From contig CAZALK010000006.1 in the NCBI GenBank assembly GCA_964486045.1, forward strand, positions 1 through 64,000: a stretch of 64,000 nt of DNA, in the 5' to 3' direction. This DNA is from an uncultured archaeon (GTDB taxonomy: Archaea; Asgardarchaeota; Lokiarchaeia; Sigyniarchaeales; SOKP01). The notes beneath the pieces are model-generated. The model saw nothing but the letters and a program-made list of their open reading frames with translations, had not been told where the DNA came from and made no database searches. Position numbers and translations under genes: made by a program. Positions 41,432 to 64,000 of the stretch are shown here, piece after piece. Positions within the stretch are counted from its first letter, which is position 1; every line of letters starts with the position of its first letter.

Positions 41432-42844
41432 ATGGAAAGATTTTTATTTGTTTTAGGTTCGAATTGGCAAATTTCAATTGCAGAACTTGATAACTATCTT
41501 AGATATTCCAGAAATAAAGGGACGATTATTGATTATTCAGCTAATATAGCAGTAGTTGAGTTCGAAAAATTACATAAGGAAACATATTTTATAAATAAGC
41601 TTATGGAAATACAATTCACTTTAGGTGGTTGTCAGAAGATTGCTAAGATATTTGATTTTATTGATATTCACACAATCGAAGAGGGTTTCCCGTTGGAAAT
41701 TGAAAAATATAGATTTGTAGCAAAAAGTCGAAAAAAAATTCTAACCACAATCGATAATTCTCTAATAGGAAAAAATTTGATATTTCCCAAAGTATATGAA
41801 AGTATGTTCTTCGCGATATCGATATATCCAAGTCTTTATGAGGATAAATACTATTCTGAAATATTAGTAAAACATTTTTTACCTTTTTTAAATAAAGGAG
41901 TAATGGAACTTCTAAAACAAAAAGGAGCAGTGAAGAGCCTTTATTATAAATATCCAGAAAAAAATATGAAAGCAGGGAATTTAAATCCAATATTTCCTCA
42001 TGTTGTAATTAAATACGATTTACTTACCCAAAATAGAGCTGAAATTATATTCGGATTTACGGAGGAAGGAGTATATTTCGCAAGGACATTCATGGTTGAT
42101 GATCCTAATTTTAAAAAAAAAATCGATGAAGAACGACCTTTTAAAGAATTTAAAAGTAGTATTTCACCGAAGTTATCACTGATTATGTTAAATTTTTTAA
42201 ATTTGTTCAATAACAGAGAAAAAATAAAAATACTTGATCCGTTTGTTGGGAACGGTACTATTCTATTATTTGCACTATTACAAGACTTTCAAATCTATGG
42301 CTCAGATAAAGAGCAAACGAAAGTTAAAAATACTATTCGTAATTTAAACTGGATGTTGGAAGTATTAGAAGAACCACCACTTTTTATCGCTAACCAAATA
42401 CTAAAAATTGATGTTAAAAATTTATCGAATAATTTTAAACTAAATTTCTTTGATGGTATATGTACTGAACCAGAATTAGGACCTTTTTTTTTAGAAAAAC
42501 CCTTTTATATTCAAGCGAAAGAGGTGTTAGAAACAAAATTAGAGCCTATATATAACGATTTATTCAGAGAATCATATAAAATATTGAAAAATGATGGAAG
42601 AATTTGCTTAGTTGCTCCAATCATTAATACAATAGACGGAAATGATATCCAGTTAAACCTCGAGATTTTAGCATTGAAGCATAATTTTCAACTGATACCA
42701 ATGTTAGATCCTGATAGATTAATAAATAAATCAAATCCTAAGCTTCAATTTCGTAAGAAACCAGTGAAAAATTTAATTGATGCTAAGAAAGGTCAGATTA
42801 TTAAAAGAAAACTATACATTTTTGAGAAAAGCGTAAAAAAATGA
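41432..42844 (+). CDS. Trm11-like tRNA methyltransferase
   Basis: ISPKLSLIMLN, ILDPFVGNGT, GSD, ICTEPELG. Confidence 0.8.
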   Translation: MERFLFVLGSNWQISIAELDNYLRYSRNKGTIIDYSANIAVVEFEKLHKETYFINKLMEIQFTLGGCQKIAKIFDFIDIHTIEEGFPLEIEKYRFVAKSRKKILTTIDNSLIGKNLIFPKVYESMFFAISIYPSLYEDKYYSEILVKHFLPFLNKGVMELLKQKGAVKSLYYKYPEKNMKAGNLNPIFPHVVIKYDLLTQNRAEIIFGFTEEGVYFARTFMVDDPNFKKKIDEERPFKEFKSSISPKLSLIMLNFLNLFNNREKIKILDPFVGNGTILLFALLQDFQIYGSDKEQTKVKNTIRNLNWMLEVLEEPPLFIANQILKIDVKNLSNNFKLNFFDGICTEPELGPFFLEKPFYIQAKEVLETKLEPIYNDLFRESYKILKNDGRICLVAPIINTIDGNDIQLNLEILALKHNFQLIPMLDPDRLINKSNPKLQFRKKPVKNLIDAKKGQIIKRKLYIFEKSVKK

Positions 42845-43518
42845 ATTTTAAGGAAATATTAAACAAAATTGAGATTGAAATTGAAGGGGAAGCACATTTA
42901 GATGAACTAGCTAAGAAAAAACAAGATCCATTTAAAATTTTAATATCAACAATACTCTCAGCCCGAACAAGAGACTCTAATACAAGAATTGCATCTGAAA
43001 GATTATTTGCCATATATGACACACCTCAACTAATAGCTGAGGCACAATTAGACGAACTCGAAGAATTAATTAAAGTCTCTGGATTTTATAAGGTTAAAGC
43101 TGCGCGGATAAAAGAAGTTTCTAAAATACTGTTTGAGGATTATAATAGTAAAGTTCCTACTGATTTTGAAGAATTGATAAATTTACCAGGAGTTGGTCCT
43201 AAAACTGCAAATTGTGTGTTAGTGTATGCTTTTAAGATTCCTGCCATTCCAGTAGACGTTCATGTTCATAGGATAACAAATAGATTACAGTGGGTAACTA
43301 CTACTAACCCTGACAAAACAGAACAAGCTTTAAAAAAAATAATTCCTAAGGATTTATGGATAGATTTAAATCCATTGTTGGTTAGATTTGGCCAGCAAAA
43401 ATGTCTACCTATTCGTCCTAAATGTGAAATTTGCTCAATAAGGGATCTCTGTCCTAAAGATTTTTCAATGGAGAGAGCTAAAAAAAAGAAGAAGAAACTG
43501 AAAAATAAATCGGTTTAA
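42841..43518 (+). CDS. nth: Endonuclease III
   Basis: LISTILSARTRD, LPGVGPKTA, VDVHVHR, C-x6-C-x2-C-x5-C. Confidence 0.96.
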   Translation: MNFKEILNKIEIEIEGEAHLDELAKKKQDPFKILISTILSARTRDSNTRIASERLFAIYDTPQLIAEAQLDELEELIKVSGFYKVKAARIKEVSKILFEDYNSKVPTDFEELINLPGVGPKTANCVLVYAFKIPAIPVDVHVHRITNRLQWVTTTNPDKTEQALKKIIPKDLWIDLNPLLVRFGQQKCLPIRPKCEICSIRDLCPKDFSMERAKKKKKKLKNKSV

Positions 43519-50679: not shown

Positions 50680-52260
50680 TCATTTCTTCTTTGCAGTGAG
50701 AATATGTTTCTTGAACTCTTCGTTCTGTAAGGTCTGGCAGCAACCCTTGTATGAATACTCAAGATGTATGTCTGGTTCGGAGACAGGAACCCCTAAAATT
50801 TCCCTTTTTGTGAATTCGCTTAAAATAAATGCTTTATATTCATCATTTTGCTCTAAACTTATCATAGACTGCGCAACTTCTTGATATGTGGCATTCATAT
50901 GTTTATTCAAAAATAAAGCATTAATAATTAGCAATGCCATATGGTACCCCACCCGATAAAGTGTCTCAGCAGGGTCGTATCTATCAAGATTTAAATGACT
51001 ATCAAACATGTCAGCAAGAATATCATATACCGCTCCAGTGAATACTTGTGAAATCTCATGAACTTCGGTTGAAACTTGACTCATTTTAAGATCATTATCT
51101 GCATTTCGTAGTCCAGTAGATTTCCCAAATAAAGCTTCACCAAATTGTTCACCCATAATAGGAAAGAAGGTTTTATTATGGAGATCGGCCTTTGATTCGG
51201 CAACAATTGCATCACATATATCGAACTGAGCCAATAACATGAATATTGAAGTAAGATCCCCAAAGGATTCGTGTAACCCACCGGTCTCAGGATGCCAACT
51301 AATCAAAAATTCGGGGCATAAGGCATCAAGGAAAGCATGTCCAGTCTCATGGGCTACAATATCGAAAGAACGGCAAGTATAAACTAAAGGTTTTGATTGA
51401 TCGTCGTTCGGATGAAAATAAAAAAATTTTAAAGCTTGCTCGTCTCTACTATAGTATGCATTAGCTCCATATTCCGCATATGGGTACACGTTAATCTGAT
51501 CTTTGCCCCATTGCCACTGAAAACCAGAATACCGATCATTTTGTTTTAAAAGCGCCCTATTATACATAGTGATCACTTGTCGAATCACAGTAAATGTGTG
51601 AACGGCATCAAACTTCTTTGGGTTTTTCTTATGGTCGTATAAAAAATCATTTTTATTGTCTGACTTAGCAATCGGTAAACCGACTATATTAATGTCACCA
51701 TCTTTTGGGCCATCTTGAATTAAGGTGTGTAAATAAGTTAGGGTTGGAGATGAAACAGTCGGGTCTTGCTCCCAAACTCTTACTTTTGAGCCCATGGTGT
51801 TTTTTTTTTCATTTGGTATTTCAATAGGATCTCCCGGACCGTTTCCATCGTTTTTAGCTTCTGAGACCCAATCCGTCACTTCCTTAAAAGATGGTACCTT
51901 AGTAAGTAGATCTGGTTGTTCCTTTTTCAATGTGACAATTTTATCTAAAAGAGTTTTTGGATTTCTCCGTGCTAGTTGTTTGACAGAGTTAACTCCGGAT
52001 AAATTTATAATGTTTGCATATTCTGGAGTAATACCTTTTATTCGCATTAAATCGGCATGTTCTTGCCATGTGTCAATTAGTTTTGCGGATATTCCTGTTT
52101 TTTTAGCTAATTTTTTTATATCATAACTAGAAAGTGGCAGTAGATCCTTAACAGAATGAATTCCTTCTTTTTCTAATTTTTTTGCATGAACAATTTCAAG
52201 CCCAATTATTTCTATTAATTTCATACTTTTTTTCACCAATTTTTTGATTAATAACAACAT
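50680..52260 (-). CDS. DUF4332-like domain fused to an M4/M36-like zinc metallopeptidase
   Basis: WQEHADLMRIKGI...GVNSVKQLARRNP; NAYYSR, DIVAHETGH, GLHESFGD, EVH. Confidence 0.85.
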   Translation of the reverse strand: MLLLIKKLVKKSMKLIEIIGLEIVHAKKLEKEGIHSVKDLLPLSSYDIKKLAKKTGISAKLIDTWQEHADLMRIKGITPEYANIINLSGVNSVKQLARRNPKTLLDKIVTLKKEQPDLLTKVPSFKEVTDWVSEAKNDGNGPGDPIEIPNEKKNTMGSKVRVWEQDPTVSSPTLTYLHTLIQDGPKDGDINIVGLPIAKSDNKNDFLYDHKKNPKKFDAVHTFTVIRQVITMYNRALLKQNDRYSGFQWQWGKDQINVYPYAEYGANAYYSRDEQALKFFYFHPNDDQSKPLVYTCRSFDIVAHETGHAFLDALCPEFLISWHPETGGLHESFGDLTSIFMLLAQFDICDAIVAESKADLHNKTFFPIMGEQFGEALFGKSTGLRNADNDLKMSQVSTEVHEISQVFTGAVYDILADMFDSHLNLDRYDPAETLYRVGYHMALLIINALFLNKHMNATYQEVAQSMISLEQNDEYKAFILSEFTKREILGVPVSEPDIHLEYSYKGCCQTLQNEEFKKHILTAKKK

Positions 52261-54556: not shown

Positions 54557-56713
54557 TTGAATGAAAGAAAAAAGGATTCTGAAGAGGAATATGTATTCGA
54601 ATTTTATGATGAAGAATACAACAATACTTTAGAAGAAGAAGTTCCAGCTGCTCTAGAAGATTACAATGAAATAAACTTTAGTGAAGATTTAAATAAAGAA
54701 CAGCTTGAAATAATTGATAATATTAGAGGGCCAATGTTAGTTATTGCTGGTGCAGGAAGCGGAAAAACAAGGACAATTACTTTTTCAGTAGCAAAACTCT
54801 TGTTATCTCAGGTTAAACCAAGTGAAATTATGCTCGTAACATTTACTAATAAAGCAGCTAATGAAATGATCAAAAGGGTGGAAAATCTTTTAGGTAAGCG
54901 TCCAAAAGGTATTTGGGCCGGGACATTTCATTCAATTGCCAATCGTTTTATTCGAAGATATGCAAAAATCCTAGGTTTGAAAACAAATTATACTATAATG
55001 GATGAAACCGATTCAAGAGCTTTAATGAAGCTTTCAATTGAAAGAGCTAATGTAAAAGAAATCGAAGAACGCTTTCCTAATGCTAGAATGACCAAAGCAA
55101 TCTTATCCTTTTCAATAAATTGTCATAAATCGATTCGAGAAATCATTCTTTGGAAATACTCTCAATTTAACAGTGAAAATGTGTTAAAGAAATTAGAAGA
55201 AGTTCACAAGATTTATGGAGAGAAAAAAGCTAAAGATAATTTAGTTGACTTTGATGACTTATTAATTTATTGGAACCGTTTATTAGATGAGAGATCAGTT
55301 GCTCAGTTAATAGCAAGGAATATAAAATATGTACTTGTTGATGAATATCAAGATACAAATTATATCCAAGATGAAATTATATATAAGATTGTAAAACAAA
55401 ACCCAGATCATAATGTCATTGCGGTAGGAGATGACGCTCAGAGTATATATGCATTTCGTGGTGCGAATTTTCAAAACATCCTGAATTTTGAAAAAAGATA
55501 TCAGCATTGTAAGAAATATACAATAACTTATAATTATAGAAGCGTTCCACAAGTTCTAGGTCTAGCCAATAACTCGATCCAACATAATGTGAAGCAATTC
55601 AAAAAAACTATGCAAACAACTCGTCCTAGTGGGATATTACCATATCAAGTTAATGTTGGAGACGATAAAGACCAAGCCAATTTTATTGCAAACCAAATTT
55701 TGAAATTACGTTCAGAAGGATATGACTTAGAAGATATGGCAGTTCTTGTTCGGGCAGGATTTCATTCACTACGAATTGAACTTGAATTAAGAGCTAAAAA
55801 TATACCCTACGAAGTACGAGCAGGGGTGGCATTTTTTGAAAAGGCACATATTAAGGATATGATTGCTCATTTACGTATTATAGAAAACCCTTATGATGAA
55901 ATTTCATGGTCTCGAATTTTCACTATAATTCAAGGTATAGGAACCTCATCGGGAACAAAAATATTTGAAGAAATTTCCAGAGTTGAAAATCCAATAGATC
56001 TATTAATAAATAAGCTGTTCTATGCAGAAAAATTAAAAGGATCTAGGATCTCAAAGGAAGGCATAAAAAATACAATATCCTATGCAAAGAAGTTGGTAGG
56101 GTTTAACCCAAACGATATCCCCTCTGAGACCATAAAAAAACTTATGAAAGTGTTGGAGGATCATATCAAGTCAAAATATGATAACTGTCAGGATAGAATT
56201 GATGATCTTAATCAATTAAGTATATTTGCTGGTAATTTTCAAACTATTCGTAAGCTGCTTGAAAATCTGAGTTTAAATAAATCCAATTTAGAATCGAAAA
56301 CTGTTTTAATGGGTAGTCAACAAGATGAAGAAAAACCTATGATCCTATCTACTATTCACCGCGCAAAAGGTCTTGAATGGAGAGTTGTTTTTATCCCGAT
56401 GCTATGTGAAGATTTCTTTCCTTCTTCAAGAGTTAAAGGGGATTCTGAAGGAATTGAGGAAGAACGTCGTGTATTCTATGTAGCCGTAACCAGAACTAAA
56501 GATCAACTCTATTTGATATCTCCCTCTTTAATTCAAGGATCTAGAGGATATCAGACTATGCGAATTTCCCCTTTTATTACAGAATTGAATCCAAAAGTCT
56601 ATAAGAAGTCATCAGTACAGATTAGATCCAAGACAAGAGATATGATAAAGGGGTCAAGTAAGCATCAAAAATCTCTATTTCAAACAGCTGATGAATTATT
56701 AAAAGAGGATTAA
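54557..56713 (+). CDS. uvrD: UvrD/PcrA family SF1A DNA helicase
   Basis: AGAGSGKT, TFTNKAA, GTFHS, VDEYQD, VGDDAQSIYAFRGA, NYRS, STIHRAKGLE, EERRVFYVAVTR. Confidence 0.95.
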   Translation: MNERKKDSEEEYVFEFYDEEYNNTLEEEVPAALEDYNEINFSEDLNKEQLEIIDNIRGPMLVIAGAGSGKTRTITFSVAKLLLSQVKPSEIMLVTFTNKAANEMIKRVENLLGKRPKGIWAGTFHSIANRFIRRYAKILGLKTNYTIMDETDSRALMKLSIERANVKEIEERFPNARMTKAILSFSINCHKSIREIILWKYSQFNSENVLKKLEEVHKIYGEKKAKDNLVDFDDLLIYWNRLLDERSVAQLIARNIKYVLVDEYQDTNYIQDEIIYKIVKQNPDHNVIAVGDDAQSIYAFRGANFQNILNFEKRYQHCKKYTITYNYRSVPQVLGLANNSIQHNVKQFKKTMQTTRPSGILPYQVNVGDDKDQANFIANQILKLRSEGYDLEDMAVLVRAGFHSLRIELELRAKNIPYEVRAGVAFFEKAHIKDMIAHLRIIENPYDEISWSRIFTIIQGIGTSSGTKIFEEISRVENPIDLLINKLFYAEKLKGSRISKEGIKNTISYAKKLVGFNPNDIPSETIKKLMKVLEDHIKSKYDNCQDRIDDLNQLSIFAGNFQTIRKLLENLSLNKSNLESKTVLMGSQQDEEKPMILSTIHRAKGLEWRVVFIPMLCEDFFPSSRVKGDSEGIEEERRVFYVAVTRTKDQLYLISPSLIQGSRGYQTMRISPFITELNPKVYKKSSVQIRSKTRDMIKGSSKHQKSLFQTADELLKED

Positions 56714-56866: not shown

Positions 56867-57067
56867 CTACATACCATTCTTCTCTCGAATTTCATTCTCA
56901 GAATATTTAATATCGCAAGATTTGCAATAATAGTCCCAATCTGTATTAGCTTTCAGTAAATTTCCACAATTAGGACATTGAATATAAATTTTGAAGTATT
57001 TGAAGTTTAAATTTAAAGAATCAATACGCTTTTTATTAGTGTTTATGTTGTTTGATTTAATACCCAT
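56867..57067 (-). CDS. Small CPxCG zinc-finger protein
   Basis: CPNCG...YYCKSC. Confidence 0.65.
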   Translation of the reverse strand: MGIKSNNINTNKKRIDSLNLNFKYFKIYIQCPNCGNLLKANTDWDYYCKSCDIKYSENEIREKNGM

Positions 57068-57403: not shown

Positions 57404-60400
57404 ATGGGCAATAATAATTTTAATAAGCAACTTTTAACTCGATATACAGAATCGGAGTGTAAACGACAGTTGTTTTTGATCTTGGGGCAAGGTAGACCAG
57501 ATTTATGGTATAAGGATAATCGACCTATAGAGAGTATAAGACATAAACGCCTTCCAACTGATCTACTCGAACGTTTAGGTCAAATATTTGAGCAAAAAGT
57601 ATATTCCCATCTTATACGGTATAATGGAGCCAAATATAATGTTGAACAAAATGGTAAAGTAGGTGAAACCTATTTAAATCCACAAATATTTGAACAATTT
57701 TATGATGAATTAAAAAATGACACGAACTTAGAAGACCTAATGCTACTAGAATTTCAATATGAAACTCCAGAATATTTTGTCAAGAATATTTTCCCCCCCA
57801 AAAATAACTTGAATGAAATACCGGTTAATTATGGAGAACAAAGACCTGATATTATTATTATCGGAAATTCTTTTAATAAAAAAAAGAAAAAAGTGTTAGA
57901 ATTACTTTCTAATGGAACAATTCGAGAAGTACCAAAGAGTGAACAGGGTATTCGGTTTGGAATTTCAATTATTGATGTGAAAAATACTAGAGAAGACCAT
58001 ATTGGAAAAAAGCAATTTATTGAGATATTGTTCTATCTTTGGACTATGGCTTCTTATTTAATAGAAAAAAGTTTGAATGATAAGTTTTTTGTCCGTATGG
58101 ATTTTAATGGTATTTTTCCTCAATATAGTGAGGAAAATTTAAAAAAACTCCTTACTTTAGATGATCTTCTGGATTTAACAATTCAATTACATTGGGACCA
58201 GATCCATCAAGTTTTCCTTAATATTATTCAAAAAATTAAAAGACTATGGAAAAAAGCTCCTCTCCCTATAGAATCGATACCAGTAAATATCCAAGCATCT
58301 TGTGGATTTTGCTATTTTATTGAAGATTGTAAAAAAACGTTAGGAATAGATCGCGCGCCCTCAGATTGGTCATTACAATTAATTCCATATACATCATTCT
58401 CTATCTCTCAACAATTACTAGACTTAGGATTTGAAACTATTGGAGATGTTTTTACAAATATTGATTCAGTAACGGTTGGAAATACTCCTGAACCTCTTTA
58501 TGCGGAATTACCTCTATTGAAATTAAAAGCATTAGCTCTGATTAATAACCAAGTAGTGATCCCTCAACCAGGAGAGATACATACATATTCTATTCCAAGA
58601 TTTACAACTATTTCTATAACTTTCGCGGTAGAAAAAGATCCCTCAAATGAGAGAGTGTACGCAGCTGGATTCTATGTTGATATGATTGCTTCTGGAAAAA
58701 TCCCTTTTGGGGGTGTTTTCAATAACTGGTGGAAGATATGGAAAGATGCGCTTAAGTTTAACAAGGAACCTAAAGATATTCAAGCTGAATTAAATAAAAA
58801 TCTTATCAGATCTATACCTCTTGTAGTAGTTGAGCAGTTTTTATATCTTCTAAATAAACTAAAAACCATAATTATCTATTTGAAAGGAGATAAAACCACC
58901 GCTGGTACACCGAGAAAAAATACTGAAATAATATATCAATTTGCAATTATCAACAGATGCCATACTAATGAAGAAGAAATAAAGTTTACAAGGCATATTA
59001 TTAAACAGCTCTATTTGATATTTGAGTTATGTAATGTTGTAGAAAATTATGTAGTGACCGATGGATATAAAGCGGGAACTTATTATGGCCCTACAACTAG
59101 CCTATTTTATTGGTCCAAAAGGCAACTGGACAATTTTCAGTCTATGTTGGAGCGAAACCTTAATAGTATCATTGATGATATTGATGTATGGAGGAAATAT
59201 TTAGCAATTATCTCTTATTTTACACCATCAGACTCAGAAGTTGCTCATCCTTATCAACACAAAAAACTTTTCAATGTTCAAGATTTTGCTGAGACAATTC
59301 TTGGATTTCCAAGTATTATTAACTACACGTGGCATGAAATCGCTAAAATTACTCAGGGAACAAATAGCAGTAAAAAGTATTGGATACAGCATTTTAATTA
59401 CATGGATTTTAATAATTGGTATGTAATGCTTGTTGAAGATGATGATTCTAAGCAGAAAACTATCCGTTTAGAACTACGTAAACAAGTGATGCATAAAATC
59501 CGTACTATTAACAAACTACGAAAGGCTTTCCAAATAGAGAGTAGGTTTAATATATCGAAGAATGCGCATGTGATCAGTAAAGAACAAATTCGAAGAGCAG
59601 TTTTATCTTCTGAGTATCATTCAATCGCACAAGTCTGGTATCTCTTTTCAAAACTGACAGGCTCAATAGAGGAAATGGATAAAGAATATCTCCGTACTAT
59701 TTATCCCGAATTCAGTATTGCCAAATTGGTAGCAGCAAAAATTACTAATTTAGTAGTACAGAAAAGTGGAACCAAAGTTTATTATGAATTTCAAATGAAA
59801 GGACTTTCTAGTAATATGAAAGTTCGACCTAACGACAGAGTTTTACTTATTCCCAATGAAAAACGAGATATGAATGCTAATCGTAGAAACGAATCTTGGA
59901 AAGTAGCTATCGAAACTATGGAGTACTTGTCTCAAATCAATGGATATAATGTAAAGACTAAAGAAACAAATACTAATTTATTTGATTTAATCAAAAAGGA
60001 TAAAGAAATTTCTGAGAGTCCAGAAGATTTAGATTGGTATTTGTATCCCACATATATAGATGCATGGTCAAAGAAACTATACGGAGAAAAAGGATTACTA
60101 CAAAGACATAATATGGGGAGATCCTGGCTTGGCTCTCTGCTTTCCTATATGTGGAAAATCAGATCCAAACAAGAATTATTTTGGCCAGAAGAATGGACTT
60201 TTAGTGCGCCCTCAGTCTATTTATATGCACCAAATCTCCTTTTAAATATGGCAAGCAAAACTAAAGAAACCTATGATAAATTGCTAACTCAAATAGACCC
60301 TACTCCTGATCCTTCTCAAAAGAGAGCTATTCAGTTAGCTTTAGAAAAAGTTATTTCTGGTATACAAGGTCCTCCCGGTACTGGTAAATCTCAAACTATC

Positions 60401-61888
60401 GCTGCTTTAATTGATGAATATTATATAAGAAGAGTAAATAGCGGTAAAAAATCTGTTAAAATTCTAATAACAGCGTTTTCTTATGCTGCGATACGAGTCC
60501 TCGTCAAGAAAATTAGAGAAGGGAAAGATAAAAACGGTAAACCTAATCCCTCTTCTAAAATTCAAATGATTTTTCTTCGCTCAATTTATCAAAAACCTAT
60601 ACCTTCTCGACCCGGAAGTAGAAATGTGGATGATTTAGTTAAAAGTGGGGCCACATGGAAATTAAATGGACAATCTAGGACAGTTACTGAAACAATGCCA
60701 TTAGAGGAATCTTTAGAATCAAGTTATATAATATTTGCTAATGCACATCAGCTTTATCATCTACCTGAACGGGTTGAAGAAGATGAATTTTCTTTTAATC
60801 TTATATGTGTTGATGAAGCAAGTCAACTCCCAGTAGATAATTTTATGTCTAGTCTTCAATTTGTTGACAAACATAACTTCGTAATTAAATCTAAATTTTC
60901 CGGTTCCCCAAAAACAAAGATTACAGACATCAATCAAGTAAAACAATTATCTATTGAAAATAAAATTGATCCAAAGAATCTTACCAAAATCGTAATCGTG
61001 GGCGACTTTAATCAGCTTCCCCCAGTTCAACCAGTTCCGCCACCCAAAAACCTAGAAAGTATTTTAAAAAGTTTATTTGTGTATTATGTAAAAAATCATG
61101 AAGTTCCGAATTCGCAACTTCAAATAAATTATCGAAGTCATAAGGATATAGTAGAGTTCACTTCCCTCTTAGGTTTTTATAAAAATTTAAAACCAGATCC
61201 TAATAATATGGATAGATTATTACAAGGGGAAATTAAAAACGTTGAGGAAAGCTGGATTCAAGAGATCCTCACACCCCAAAAAGTTGTTTCATGCATTATA
61301 CACAACAAAAAGTTTGAAATCGGTGTTAGCGCACTAGAAGCTTTTCTTGCAGTAAAAATTATATTAGGCTATTTTAAAATGGTACGACCTAATTCAAAAG
61401 TTCAAGAACGCGTATTTTGGAGAGAAACTGTTGGCGTTGTAGCCCCCCATAATGCACAAGGACGCTTGATAATAAGACAACTATATGATAAACTCATAGA
61501 TCCATCAAAGCCATTAACGTCTCTTAATCATTCTGAGTTAATGAATCTCCTGATTAATACAATTTATTCTGTTGAAAAATTTCAAGGGTCTGATAGAGAA
61601 CTCATTATCTCATCAATTGGGATTTCTGATAAGGATCAGCTTAATTCTGAGAGTGAATTTATATATAATATAAATCGGTTCAATGTTCTTACTTCAAGGG
61701 CAAAAAGTAAGATAATATTGATAGCAAGTAAGAGATTCTTCAATTTCATACCCAAAGAAAGGAATATCATGGAAGAAGCTGCACATATCCGTAATTATGC
61801 ACTAAATTATTGTAATAAATCTGAAAAACTTCACATTAAAGATGAGAAAAATTTAGATGAGTTAGTTGAATTTAGATATAAAGATTAA
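57404..61888 (+). CDS. Fe-S RecB/Cas4-like nuclease fused to a Dna2/Upf1-type SF1B helicase
   Basis: C19...RPD...IDVK...QFIEILFY...C300-x2-C303-x5-C309; QGPPGTGKS, DEASQ, GDFNQLPPV, NYRS, VEKFQGSD, RFNVLTSRAK. Confidence 0.88.
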   Translation: MGNNNFNKQLLTRYTESECKRQLFLILGQGRPDLWYKDNRPIESIRHKRLPTDLLERLGQIFEQKVYSHLIRYNGAKYNVEQNGKVGETYLNPQIFEQFYDELKNDTNLEDLMLLEFQYETPEYFVKNIFPPKNNLNEIPVNYGEQRPDIIIIGNSFNKKKKKVLELLSNGTIREVPKSEQGIRFGISIIDVKNTREDHIGKKQFIEILFYLWTMASYLIEKSLNDKFFVRMDFNGIFPQYSEENLKKLLTLDDLLDLTIQLHWDQIHQVFLNIIQKIKRLWKKAPLPIESIPVNIQASCGFCYFIEDCKKTLGIDRAPSDWSLQLIPYTSFSISQQLLDLGFETIGDVFTNIDSVTVGNTPEPLYAELPLLKLKALALINNQVVIPQPGEIHTYSIPRFTTISITFAVEKDPSNERVYAAGFYVDMIASGKIPFGGVFNNWWKIWKDALKFNKEPKDIQAELNKNLIRSIPLVVVEQFLYLLNKLKTIIIYLKGDKTTAGTPRKNTEIIYQFAIINRCHTNEEEIKFTRHIIKQLYLIFELCNVVENYVVTDGYKAGTYYGPTTSLFYWSKRQLDNFQSMLERNLNSIIDDIDVWRKYLAIISYFTPSDSEVAHPYQHKKLFNVQDFAETILGFPSIINYTWHEIAKITQGTNSSKKYWIQHFNYMDFNNWYVMLVEDDDSKQKTIRLELRKQVMHKIRTINKLRKAFQIESRFNISKNAHVISKEQIRRAVLSSEYHSIAQVWYLFSKLTGSIEEMDKEYLRTIYPEFSIAKLVAAKITNLVVQKSGTKVYYEFQMKGLSSNMKVRPNDRVLLIPNEKRDMNANRRNESWKVAIETMEYLSQINGYNVKTKETNTNLFDLIKKDKEISESPEDLDWYLYPTYIDAWSKKLYGEKGLLQRHNMGRSWLGSLLSYMWKIRSKQELFWPEEWTFSAPSVYLYAPNLLLNMASKTKETYDKLLTQIDPTPDPSQKRAIQLALEKVISGIQGPPGTGKSQTIAALIDEYYIRRVNSGKKSVKILITAFSYAAIRVLVKKIREGKDKNGKPNPSSKIQMIFLRSIYQKPIPSRPGSRNVDDLVKSGATWKLNGQSRTVTETMPLEESLESSYIIFANAHQLYHLPERVEEDEFSFNLICVDEASQLPVDNFMSSLQFVDKHNFVIKSKFSGSPKTKITDINQVKQLSIENKIDPKNLTKIVIVGDFNQLPPVQPVPPPKNLESILKSLFVYYVKNHEVPNSQLQINYRSHKDIVEFTSLLGFYKNLKPDPNNMDRLLQGEIKNVEESWIQEILTPQKVVSCIIHNKKFEIGVSALEAFLAVKIILGYFKMVRPNSKVQERVFWRETVGVVAPHNAQGRLIIRQLYDKLIDPSKPLTSLNHSELMNLLINTIYSVEKFQGSDRELIISSIGISDKDQLNSESEFIYNINRFNVLTSRAKSKIILIASKRFFNFIPKERNIMEEAAHIRNYALNYCNKSEKLHIKDEKNLDELVEFRYKD

Positions 61889-61906
61889 AAGTAAAGAAGA
61901 TATAAT

Positions 61907-63406
61907 ATGAATGCAAAATTTGTCCATATTGCTGATCTTCATCTCGGAAAAAGGCAATATAATAATAATGAGCGATATCTAGATTACTTTCGGGCTTTTA
62001 AATGGATTCTAAAATTTGCAATTCAAGAAAGGGTTGATTTTATCTTAATTGCGGGAGATTTATTTGATAACCGTAAGATAAGTCCGAATGTTTTGACTGA
62101 AGTTTTCTATATTATTCGAAATTTTAAAAACAAGTCACAAGAAGAGCTTAATCGTGAGATCCCATTAATCTGCATTGAGGGAAATCATGACACTCCTATT
62201 TATTCTACTCAATCTTGGATGACATTTTTAGCAGATTTAGATCTAATTATTCTCTTATCTGGAGATTATGATAAAAACAGGAAGATTATCAGTTTTGAAC
62301 CCTATGATGCTAAAACTCGCCGGGGCGGAATGATACAGATAAAAAATGTCAAAATCTATGGAGTTTCTTTTTATGGAAGCTCTACAATTCATCTATTCCA
62401 ACCGATTATTGAAGCGATTAAGGAAGATACCCCCAAGTTAAATATTTTAATGATGCATTTTGGAGTAGTAGGCCAAGATTCGTCTAAACCAGGTATTGAA
62501 TTTTCTGAGCCTTTTAAAAATTTGCATACCAAAGTTGATTATTTAGCTTTAGGTCATTACCATAAGCTGTATCAACTTCCTCGTAAAAATCCATGGATTT
62601 ATAATCCTGGATCCCTAGAAATTACAGATATTAGGGAAGCATTTGATTATTTTGAGAAGGATGCTAAAAGAGGAGCAATTCTTATATCTAGTGATGAAAA
62701 AATATATCAGAGTAAGACTATAATATGCGAGAATGGTGCTACCGATCTAAATTTGATACCGAATCGTAAATTCTTACGGGTTAGTCCTATTAATATCGGA
62801 GAAACTACATCATTTGATGAATTAATAAAACTTGTGATGGATACAATTAAAAGGTGGGGAACTCCAACAAAAAATTCTCCGATGGCTTCTGCTCCAAACG
62901 ATCTAAATTGTCCCATTCTTTTCTTTAACATTGAGGGTGAGGTTAATTATTCTCGTTTAGAAGTAAATATAAATCAACTTCGACATGAAATCTTGAATGA
63001 ATTTGCTCTTCTTGAAGTTAGGATCTTCTCCCCATATCTAATTTCCAGCTTAGATAATATAAAAATACCTCAAGGAAAAAAAACTATAGATGAAATAGAA
63101 TTTGAAATTTTTTCTGCCATGGTAAAAGAAAACTCAATGTTCGAGCATGTTGAAGAAGAAGTAGTAGATTTAATGAAAAATTTAAAGAGGGAATTATTAG
63201 TTGGTAAACCTAATTATTCCGCTTTAAAAGAACTTATCAAAGAATGGTGCCTGCATAATGCTGGTGAATTTAAAATCCAGGATAAATTATTTCAATCAGA
63301 ACAAGATGAAACACCTGAAGTAGAGAAAATTGTGGAAAGTGATGATGATGGAGATTTAGATCTCGATGATTATATTGATAATATTGAAGAAGAAGGGATA
63401 GATTAG
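61907..63406 (+). CDS. mre11: Mre11/SbcD DNA repair nuclease
   Basis: ADLHLG, AGDLFD, GNHD, ALGHYH, YNPGSLE; adjacent to rad50. Confidence 0.93.
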   Translation: MNAKFVHIADLHLGKRQYNNNERYLDYFRAFKWILKFAIQERVDFILIAGDLFDNRKISPNVLTEVFYIIRNFKNKSQEELNREIPLICIEGNHDTPIYSTQSWMTFLADLDLIILLSGDYDKNRKIISFEPYDAKTRRGGMIQIKNVKIYGVSFYGSSTIHLFQPIIEAIKEDTPKLNILMMHFGVVGQDSSKPGIEFSEPFKNLHTKVDYLALGHYHKLYQLPRKNPWIYNPGSLEITDIREAFDYFEKDAKRGAILISSDEKIYQSKTIICENGATDLNLIPNRKFLRVSPINIGETTSFDELIKLVMDTIKRWGTPTKNSPMASAPNDLNCPILFFNIEGEVNYSRLEVNINQLRHEILNEFALLEVRIFSPYLISSLDNIKIPQGKKTIDEIEFEIFSAMVKENSMFEHVEEEVVDLMKNLKRELLVGKPNYSALKELIKEWCLHNAGEFKIQDKLFQSEQDETPEVEKIVESDDDGDLDLDDYIDNIEEEGID

Positions 63407-63407
63407 A

Positions 63408-64000
63408 ATGATAATTACAAAAATTGAACTCGAAAATATTACAACTCACAAAAAGACAACAATTGATTTTCAAGCCGGATTAAATTTGTTATATGGTCCC
63501 AATGGAACAGGTAAATCTACAGTTCTTAAAATGATTGGATTTGTACTATTCGATTTTCTTCCAGGTAAACAAAAAGATTATACTAGGAAGAGCTTTGCAA
63601 AATCACCCAAATTTGGGAAGGTTAAGCTTTGGGTTGTGGGTTTAAACGACGATCAATTTGTTATTCAGAGAACTCTAGCAAAAACTAAACAGTTAATTGA
63701 AGTTTCAGATGCAAGGACAGGAATTATTGAAAAAGGAATAAATAGTACCGCACAATTACAGGAATGGTTAAAAAATCAATTATCTTTAAGTCCGGATGTT
63801 GATTTAGCAAATCTATTTAAAACTTCTGTGGGTGTCCAACAAGGTACTTTTACAGAACCATTTTTACGCACACCGCAGAAAAGAAAAGACTTTTTTAATC
63901 CTGTTTTACAACTTGATGTATACAGAACAGTTTGGTCAAATCTTCGTAATATTATAAAAGAATTTAACAGAGATTTACAACAAGCTGAAAATAAACAAAC
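63408..64000 (+). CDS. rad50: Rad50/SbcC ATPase, N-terminal part running off the window (not in the ORF track)
   Basis: Manual translation MIITKIELENITTHKKTTIDFQAGLNLLYGPNGTGKSTVL...VGVQQGTF...RKDFF; ATG 1 bp after the mre11 stop. Confidence 0.93.
   Translation, partial: MIITKIELENITTHKKTTIDFQAGLNLLYGPNGTGKSTVLKMIGFVLFDFLPGKQKDYTRKSFAKSPKFGKVKLWVVGLNDDQFVIQRTLAKTKQLIEVSDARTGIIEKGINSTAQLQEWLKNQLSLSPDVDLANLFKTSVGVQQGTFTEPFLRTPQKRKDFFNPVLQLDVYRTVWSNLRNIIKEFNRDLQQAENKQ

Follow-up and report, generated by a model that had tools for sequence, protein, structure and literature searches.

DNA end resection in archaea is taught as the joint work of the Mre11-Rad50 complex (MR) and HerA-NurA, in which HerA, an FtsK-type ATPase, forms hexamers and NurA, an RNase H-like protein, forms dimers. 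Eukaryotes lack HerA-NurA and resect DNA ends with Dna2 and Exo1. In reviews of resection in archaea and Asgards, HerA-NurA-MR is the only system described and the Asgard proteins are termed uncharacterized (PMC13748450, PMC12993045), and a recent review leaves open how the change from HerA-NurA to eukaryotic Dna2/Exo1 happened (PMC13748450). Here, we analyzed a 64,000-nucleotide stretch of DNA, hereafter the window, from an uncultured Asgard archaeon of the order Sigyniarchaeales (assembly GCA_964486045.1, 5.18 Mb in 45 contigs; positions 1 to 64000 of contig CAZALK010000006.1, hereafter C6). Near the window end, mre11 and rad50 directly follow the gene for a single-chain nuclease-helicase, whose product we call NucHel. 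A literature search returned no description of a NucHel-MR operon or of the function of TM0106, the nuclease family that the N-terminal part of NucHel resembles. The three genes are as follows:

57404-61888, + strand: NucHel gene, 1494 amino acids (aa), from its open reading frame (ORF) and translation.
61907-63406, + strand: mre11, 499 aa with an acidic C-terminal tail; Pfam Metallophos.
63408-64000, + strand: rad50, first 197 of 906 aa; the ORF is open at the window end and stops at position 66128 of contig C6.

An earlier note, made from the sequence alone, had placed a 1494-aa gene 18 bp ahead of mre11, and mre11 1 bp ahead of rad50. This spacing held when the ORFs and both junctions were read letter by letter: the NucHel TAA (61886-61888) is separated by 18 nt from the mre11 ATG (61907), and the mre11 TAG (63404-63406) by 1 nt from the rad50 ATG (63408). 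The encoded proteins carry the Mre11 phosphoesterase motifs and the Rad50 ATP-binding cassette (ABC) head. The window Mre11 matched archaeal Mre11 models at E values of 1e-28 to 1e-30 versus 1e-15 for SbcD, and archaeal Rad50 models outscored SbcC on the Rad50 head. When the contig was read past the window end, the gene downstream of rad50 was found on the opposite strand, and neither herA nor nurA adjoins NucHel-mre11-rad50 or comes after rad50. At the apex of the Rad50 coiled coil, a C-P-x5-C motif with putative zinc binding stands in place of the CxxC hook (contig C6 64779-64802; L002:3780-3803). This motif is present in 14 of 15 aligned NucHel-linked Rad50 proteins, including that of the window; the exception (G135) has CPVC, which is also the hook of the canonical cassette Rad50 of a congener (G177).

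The decisive result is the synteny of the cassette: NucHel-MR replaces herA-nurA-mre11-rad50 at the same chromosomal site. In four congeners (G178, G200, G189, and G227), the site of the window operon carries herA-nurA-mre11-rad50 or nurA-herA-mre11-rad50. The shared left flank comprises a 268-aa gene (up268), a 122-aa gene (up122), and a uvrD-like gene, which are 75-80% identical to their congener orthologs. The shared right flank is an S26 signal-peptidase gene (contig C6 68937-69614), joined in G200 by the next three genes (47-67% identity). The 268-aa and 122-aa genes also adjoin NucHel-MR in two other genera. The uvrD-like gene lies outside the cassette as part of its conserved left flank:

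54557-56713, + strand: uvrD-like helicase; Pfam UvrD.

Its membership in the module was considered and rejected, as it also flanks HerA-NurA cassettes and is missing from the NucHel loci of other genera.

Across 154 genomes of the order, three kinds of HerA/NurA-linked MR cassette were distinguished: a canonical kind with a CxxC hook (4/154), type 2 (46/154), and type 3 (55/154). Types 2 and 3 share the site of the window operon, type 3 in the same orientation and type 2 inverted. The two are almost mutually exclusive in the genus (both in 2/53 genomes); 49 of the 53 genomes of genus g1 carry one or the other type, and the window genome has neither. At least one cassette type was detected in 128 of the 154 genomes and exactly one in 114. 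NucHel-MR was present in 38 genomes, 32 of them without a HerA-NurA-type cassette, and HerA-NurA-type cassettes were present in 96. Only 6 genomes carried both kinds, compared with approximately 24 expected under independence; these counts come from E-value and score thresholds applied to metagenome-assembled genomes of related, non-independent lineages and are descriptive, not a statistical test. The distributions of NucHel-MR and HerA-NurA-type cassettes are thus near-complementary, and no MR cassette type other than NucHel-MR was detected in family f3, where 10 of 14 genomes carry it. NucHel-linked Mre11 and Rad50 share only 25-31% identity with their counterparts in HerA-NurA cassettes. 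The two systems are alike in that a translocase and a nuclease are encoded directly upstream of mre11-rad50. They differ in that NucHel is a single polypeptide that combines a superfamily 1B (SF1B) helicase, a Cas4-like nuclease, and a DEDDh-like domain.

A search of the contigs of the window genome detected no other Rad50 and no herA-nurA-mre11-rad50 operon. Elsewhere in this genome, herA-like genes are scattered and nurA is solitary (426 aa; contig C14 121518-122795; L015:8516-9796), lying between methyltransferase and Rce1-like protease genes. A second Mre11-like phosphoesterase (387 aa; contig C8 35638-36798; L014:8639-9802) is 30% identical to the operon Mre11 and has no Rad50 nearby; its gene adjoins that of a 536-aa PHP-domain protein (L014:9919-11529). 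Similar matches were detected in 41 of 53 congeners, in frames of approximately 390 to 440 aa with 34-43% identity to the operon Mre11.

The linkage of NucHel to Mre11-Rad50 is real. Of 20 clade A/B loci examined, 19 retain the NucHel-mre11-rad50 arrangement, across 11 genera and three families of the order and at 40-59% identity; G229 is the sole unlinked locus. In 18 other genomes of the order, mre11 and rad50 come after NucHel, once with a 3.2-kb insertion and once on a contig that ends inside mre11. In the NucHel tree, MR-linked proteins form one clade (Shimodaira-Hasegawa [SH]-like support of 98), in which families f4, f3, and f1 branch in that order. Its sister is a stand-alone paralog clade (clade C), for which no conserved neighbors were found, and the stand-alone orthologs of f14, f15, and f18, assigned to the Heimdall group by identity to named matches, branch below. 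We collected 136 full-length homologs, whose sources name Lokiarchaeota/Promethearchaeota, Heimdallarchaeota, and Kariarchaeaceae. NucHel was detected in 54 of 400 genomes of the phylum (f1, 27/134; f3, 10/14; f15, 10/12), and in only 1 of 53 other species of the window's genus. One genome carries a near-identical operon, and its protein shares 96% identity with one listed by NCBI under Candidatus Lokiarchaeum ossiferum. We take this to be a cultured species, and transcript and damage-response tests are therefore feasible.

If the adjacency were meaningless, NucHel would be a general RNA/DNA helicase-nuclease (acting, for example, in R-loop or flap processing) that merely lies beside mre11-rad50. 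Stand-alone orthologs and paralogs do occur, and the best single-sequence Protein Data Bank (PDB) match of NucHel is Sen1, an RNA/DNA helicase. However, the genes remain tightly spaced (18 bp and 1 bp) and in the same order in the 18 other genomes down to 40% identity, and the whole cassette is swapped with herA-nurA-mre11-rad50 at one site; we regard the prospect of such a chance neighborhood as very slight. Because the linkage is conserved and the genome contains neither another Rad50 nor a herA-nurA-mre11-rad50 operon, the window lineage very probably couples Mre11-Rad50 to NucHel. The earlier note had suggested coupling to a Dna2-like enzyme; the coupling is supported, and a specific kinship with Dna2 is not.

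NucHel consists of five regions:

57404..58339, + strand (residues 1-312): Cas4-like PD-(D/E)XK nuclease with a four-Cys iron-sulfur (Fe-S) staple; AlphaFold (AF2) model, VIA-align, and invariant residues.
58346..58558, + strand (residues 315-385): double helix-hairpin-helix, (HhH)2, DNA-binding domain; VIA-align.
58601..59608, + strand (residues ~400-735): RNase H-fold 3'-5' exonuclease-like domain of the PolB-exonuclease/DEDDh type, with helical inserts; VIA-align.
59735..60253, + strand (residues ~778-950): beta-barrel and helical stalk, an Upf1-type accessory region; AF2 and Foldseek, with low-confidence boundaries.
60281..61885, + strand (residues 960-1494): SF1B Upf1-like helicase core with all motifs; Pfam AAA_11/AAA_12 and profile versus PDB.

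Pfam, NCBIfam, and PADLOC searches with full-length NucHel annotated nothing outside the helicase, and Pfam returned no match to residues 1-950 at an E value of 0.1. Likewise, neither structural model had a Foldseek match in the PDB at E <= 0.001, and structures were then compared by VIA-align. The model of residues 1-385 has a predicted local distance difference test (pLDDT) score of 92. Its nuclease aligned best with Cas4 (Z = 11.0 for 7mi4_A and 9.8 for 8d3l_I), followed at Z of approximately 7 to 8 by Dna2 (7.4 over 188 residues), AdnAB (7.3), AddB (7.2), RecE, MGME1, and Exo5. The four Cys residues (C19; C300-x2-C303-x5-C309), the PD...DxK core, and the SF1B motifs from G989 onward, all proposed in the earlier note, are present and invariant across homologs. 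Within the nuclease, all four Cys, P148-D149, D191-x-K193, E116, E207, and Y211 are invariant in 24 to 31 homologs; because identity among these falls to approximately 29%, the pattern is not due to chance.

Residues 315-385 matched the Rad51 N-terminal domain (Z = 8.0; root mean square deviation of 2.6 over 61 residues), and also NusA AR2 and the C-terminal domain of the RNA polymerase alpha subunit. In the model of residues 386-960 (pLDDT of 76), the exonuclease-like domain matched the exonuclease domains of Pol alpha and archaeal PolB (Z = 13 to 14) and dozens of DEDDh exonucleases (Z = 10 to 12). Its conserved residues in the homolog alignment (E410, D412, E525, E547, and H663-x4-D668) suggest a live metal site and a predicted exonuclease activity. 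A distant sister family also keeps the (D/E)-x-D motif and the E525 position. The accessory region has five strands in the AF2 model and gave weak Foldseek matches to Upf1, Sen1, IGHMBP2, Aquarius, and Dna2. In the helicase, which Pfam places in the Upf1-like SF1B group (AAA_11/AAA_12 on residues 969-1443), Walker A (G989-K995), Walker B (D1137-E1138), and motifs III to VI are invariant in the homolog alignment.

The earlier note read the Cys spacing and the nuclease-then-helicase order as those of Dna2. The layout bears this out: like Dna2 and the bacterial Dna2-like protein Bad (PMC7430649), NucHel places its PD-(D/E)XK nuclease with an Fe-S staple ahead of the SF1B helicase, separates the two by a beta-barrel and stalk, and has a presumed role in 5'-strand resection beside Mre11-Rad50. 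Were NucHel truly orthologous to eukaryotic Dna2, or its direct ancestor, the MRX/MRN-Dna2 partnership would have been inherited from Asgard archaea. Beyond the shared domain order, this proposal can draw on the restriction of the NucHel family to Loki and Heimdall-group Asgards and on a profile search of the PDB in which Dna2 nominally ranked first (60.7 bits, 4.3e-16). Yet that score is level with those of IGHMBP2 (59.0 bits, 1.4e-15) and Upf1 (57.2 bits, 5e-15) and covers the helicase part only, such that the helicase appears equidistant from all three and not specifically Dna2-like. The nuclease has no sequence-level match to Dna2: in a six-frame genome scan, the Pfam Dna2 nuclease model (PF08696) reached a best E value of 0.2 at other loci and nothing at NucHel. 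Its fold is also nearer to Cas4 than to Dna2 (Z of 11.0 versus 7.4), and Dna2 is level with AddB, AdnAB, Exo5, and MGME1. Unlike Dna2, NucHel carries an insert of approximately 450 aa, comprising the (HhH)2 and DEDDh-like domains, between the nuclease and the helicase accessory region. There is no space for an N-terminal OB (oligonucleotide/oligosaccharide-binding) domain because the nuclease begins at residue 1, with C19 at its start. Finally, the closest relatives by sequence are TM0106-like bacterial proteins. NucHel is thus Dna2-like in layout only, with no evidence of Dna2 orthology, which on present evidence is unlikely; we would put orthology or direct descent at a very low probability. 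An equally low one attaches to the variant in which the NucHel family is the prokaryotic stock of eukaryotic Dna2 through loss of the (HhH)2-DEDDh insert. If that variant were true, a partnership of Mre11-Rad50 with a Dna2-type enzyme would predate eukaryotes and would already have been displacing HerA-NurA in Asgards.

The alternative raised in the earlier note, a TM0106-like nuclease-helicase in a module acting against mobile genetic elements (MGEs), fared differently in its two parts: the TM0106 likeness of the N-terminal region was borne out, and the anti-MGE function was unsupported by the Asgard neighborhoods. The order of a nuclease (Cas4 fold, Z = 11) followed by a DEDDh-like region (PolB exonuclease fold, Z = 14) is the layout of the TM0106 family (TIGR03491, RecB-like putative nuclease), in which a Cas4-like Fe-S nuclease precedes a PolB-exonuclease-like RNase H fold. 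In the ESM Atlas, the clusters nearest to residues 1-760 were TM0106 (scores of 0.93 to 0.95). When 1.8 billion representatives were searched with a profile built from residues 1-960, the Asgard family was recovered along with the sister family (E values of 1e-39 to 1e-21), the latter comprising proteins of 1370 to 1540 aa that share the NucHel architecture. The window NucHel itself matched neither TIGR03491 nor PF13482, and six-frame genome scans with Pfam RNase_H_2 (PF13482) and Cas_Cas4 (PF01930) did not match the NucHel locus. One Asgard ortholog (20 bits, 2e-4) and sister-family proteins (12 to 39 bits, 4.5e-10 to 6e-5) matched TIGR03491 below its curated cut-off of 97.45 bits. Because the sister family and one ortholog match TIGR03491 and the ESM Atlas neighbors are TM0106, we conclude that the N-terminal 760 aa of NucHel are a divergent TM0106-like module fused to an SF1B helicase, and not a curated TM0106 member. 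Relative to the TM0106 family, NucHel adds the C-terminal helicase and the linkage to Mre11-Rad50.

Two bacterial loci of the sister family are candidate defense arrangements. At one (L081:7896-22314), the nuclease-helicase is preceded by a methyltransferase and followed by a UvrD-like protein (weak ParE match) and then an 1884-aa DEAD/DUF1998 helicase. At the other (L078:8605-24626), it has a methyltransferase and a DinG-like helicase for neighbors and is carried as cargo by a Tn7-like element. A third member lies near RecQ, Fpg, and RNase HII.

Other systems resemble NucHel in part. Cas4 is the best fold match and has the same 1+3 Cys pattern; however, NucHel lacks a cas context (no cas genes in the annotated stretch from approximately 35.6 kb of the window to 71.8 kb of the contig), and its nuclease is just one part of a 1494-aa protein. 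AddAB and AdnAB, which resect DNA ends, likewise pair an SF1 motor with an Fe-S nuclease of the RecB family, and AddAB is reportedly linked genetically to an Mre11/Rad50-type complex in the Bacillus addB-addA-sbcC-sbcD cluster, as NucHel is here. These are two-subunit enzymes with SF1A-type motors, whereas in NucHel a single chain bears an SF1B motor together with an extra DEDDh-like domain. The fusions listed in a phylogenomic survey of Cas4 include UvrD-Cas4 but not the NucHel type (PMC5704561). Two defense systems were considered as identities for NucHel and rejected. Prometheus, reported in an Asgard defensome paper (PMC13700489), is a single-protein system (ProA) made up of DUF4011, a helicase into which a Dna2-type nuclease is inserted, and DUF3320; NucHel scored 24 bits over 36 residues near Walker A against an NCBIfam NF058533 cut-off of 1500, and Pfam found neither DUF4011 nor DUF3320. 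For Mokosh, the PADLOC match to MkoA was limited to helicase residues 1195-1454, and no phospholipase D (PLD) gene is nearby.

Taken together, these results suggest that NucHel-MR is probably a non-orthologous replacement of HerA-NurA in DNA-end resection, the NucHel fusion standing in for the HerA translocase and the NurA nuclease in the window lineage. Mre11-Rad50 would recognize and open DNA ends, and long-range resection would then fall to NucHel. Its SF1B motor would track 5'-3' on one strand while the Cas4-like Fe-S nuclease degraded that same strand, so that a 3' tail is left for RadA. The (HhH)2 domain may hold the duplex, and the DEDDh-like domain may trim or police the 3' strand. This scheme is proposed because SF1B helicases, Cas4/AddB/Dna2 nucleases, and DEDDh exonucleases have established behaviors of this kind. 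The strand polarity, the activity of each nuclease site, a physical association with Mre11-Rad50, and a function in recombinational repair and not in defense are presumed.

Several observations weigh against this reading. The family is patchy, occurring in 54 of the 400 phylum genomes and in a single one of the 53 other species of the genus, and the cassette counts behind its near-complementarity with HerA-NurA are descriptive. Within f1, subclades A and B mix genera in the NucHel tree, which points to exchange between lineages or cassettes or to differential loss. The Heimdall-group orthologs and paralog clade C are unlinked to Mre11-Rad50, with metabolic or housekeeping neighbors, and because these proteins stand alone, NucHel is able to act without Mre11-Rad50. 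Alternative cassettes at one fixed site are also typical of defense hot spots. Distant relatives of the same architecture lie beside N6/N4 DNA methyltransferases, in Tn7-like cargo, or by UvrD, a DUF1998 helicase, and an nSTAND NTPase.

An anti-MGE defense role, in which an SbcCD-like Mre11-Rad50 would sense foreign ends or structures and NucHel would shred the invader, is possible because of the patchiness, the cassette exchange, and the defense-like islands around the sister family. There are parallels for such a division of labor: RecBCD and AddAB shred DNA, and Rad50-like ATPases in Lamassu-type systems are thought to act as sensors. PADLOC also matched NucHel to MkoA and DpdJ (helicase only) and the Rad50 head to LmuB; these matches, however, are confined to generic helicase or ABC-head regions. 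The Asgard loci have housekeeping neighbors and are free of restriction, methylase, CRISPR, integrase, and transposase genes. Around the window operon in particular, the neighbors are housekeeping and repair genes (endonuclease III, UvrD, and tRNA methyltransferase), with no defense genes, MGE genes, or flanking repeats. In most genomes of the order, moreover, there is just one MR cassette type, the pattern expected of a core function, and none besides NucHel-MR was found in f3. We therefore consider defense unlikely, although a good deal less remote than direct descent of Dna2 from NucHel, and retain replacement of HerA-NurA in end resection as the favored explanation.

Mobile-element origin of the locus was considered as well and found no support, as integrase and transposase genes are absent and the border repeats are only AT-rich chance ones. 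A PHROG scan of the locus returned nothing except a weak "endonuclease" match (E value of 1e-4) to a 66-aa ORF (56867-57067, - strand) inside the 690-bp gap before the NucHel gene. This ORF encodes two CxxC pairs in a zinc-ribbon-like arrangement and is possibly no real gene. DNA-binding and repair genes in the vicinity include those for a 526-aa DUF4332/HHH_5 protein (50680-52260, - strand) and a homolog of endonuclease III that carries an Fe-S motif (42841-43518, + strand).

Replacement of HerA-NurA by NucHel would make this Asgard order a natural experiment, in which one chromosomal site holds either HerA-NurA-MR or a single-chain nuclease-helicase with MR and genomes usually carry one of the two. 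It would offer a testable example of an enzyme of Dna2-like layout displacing non-orthologous components of a core repair pathway, and it may provide the first functional context for the uncharacterized TM0106-like nucleases.

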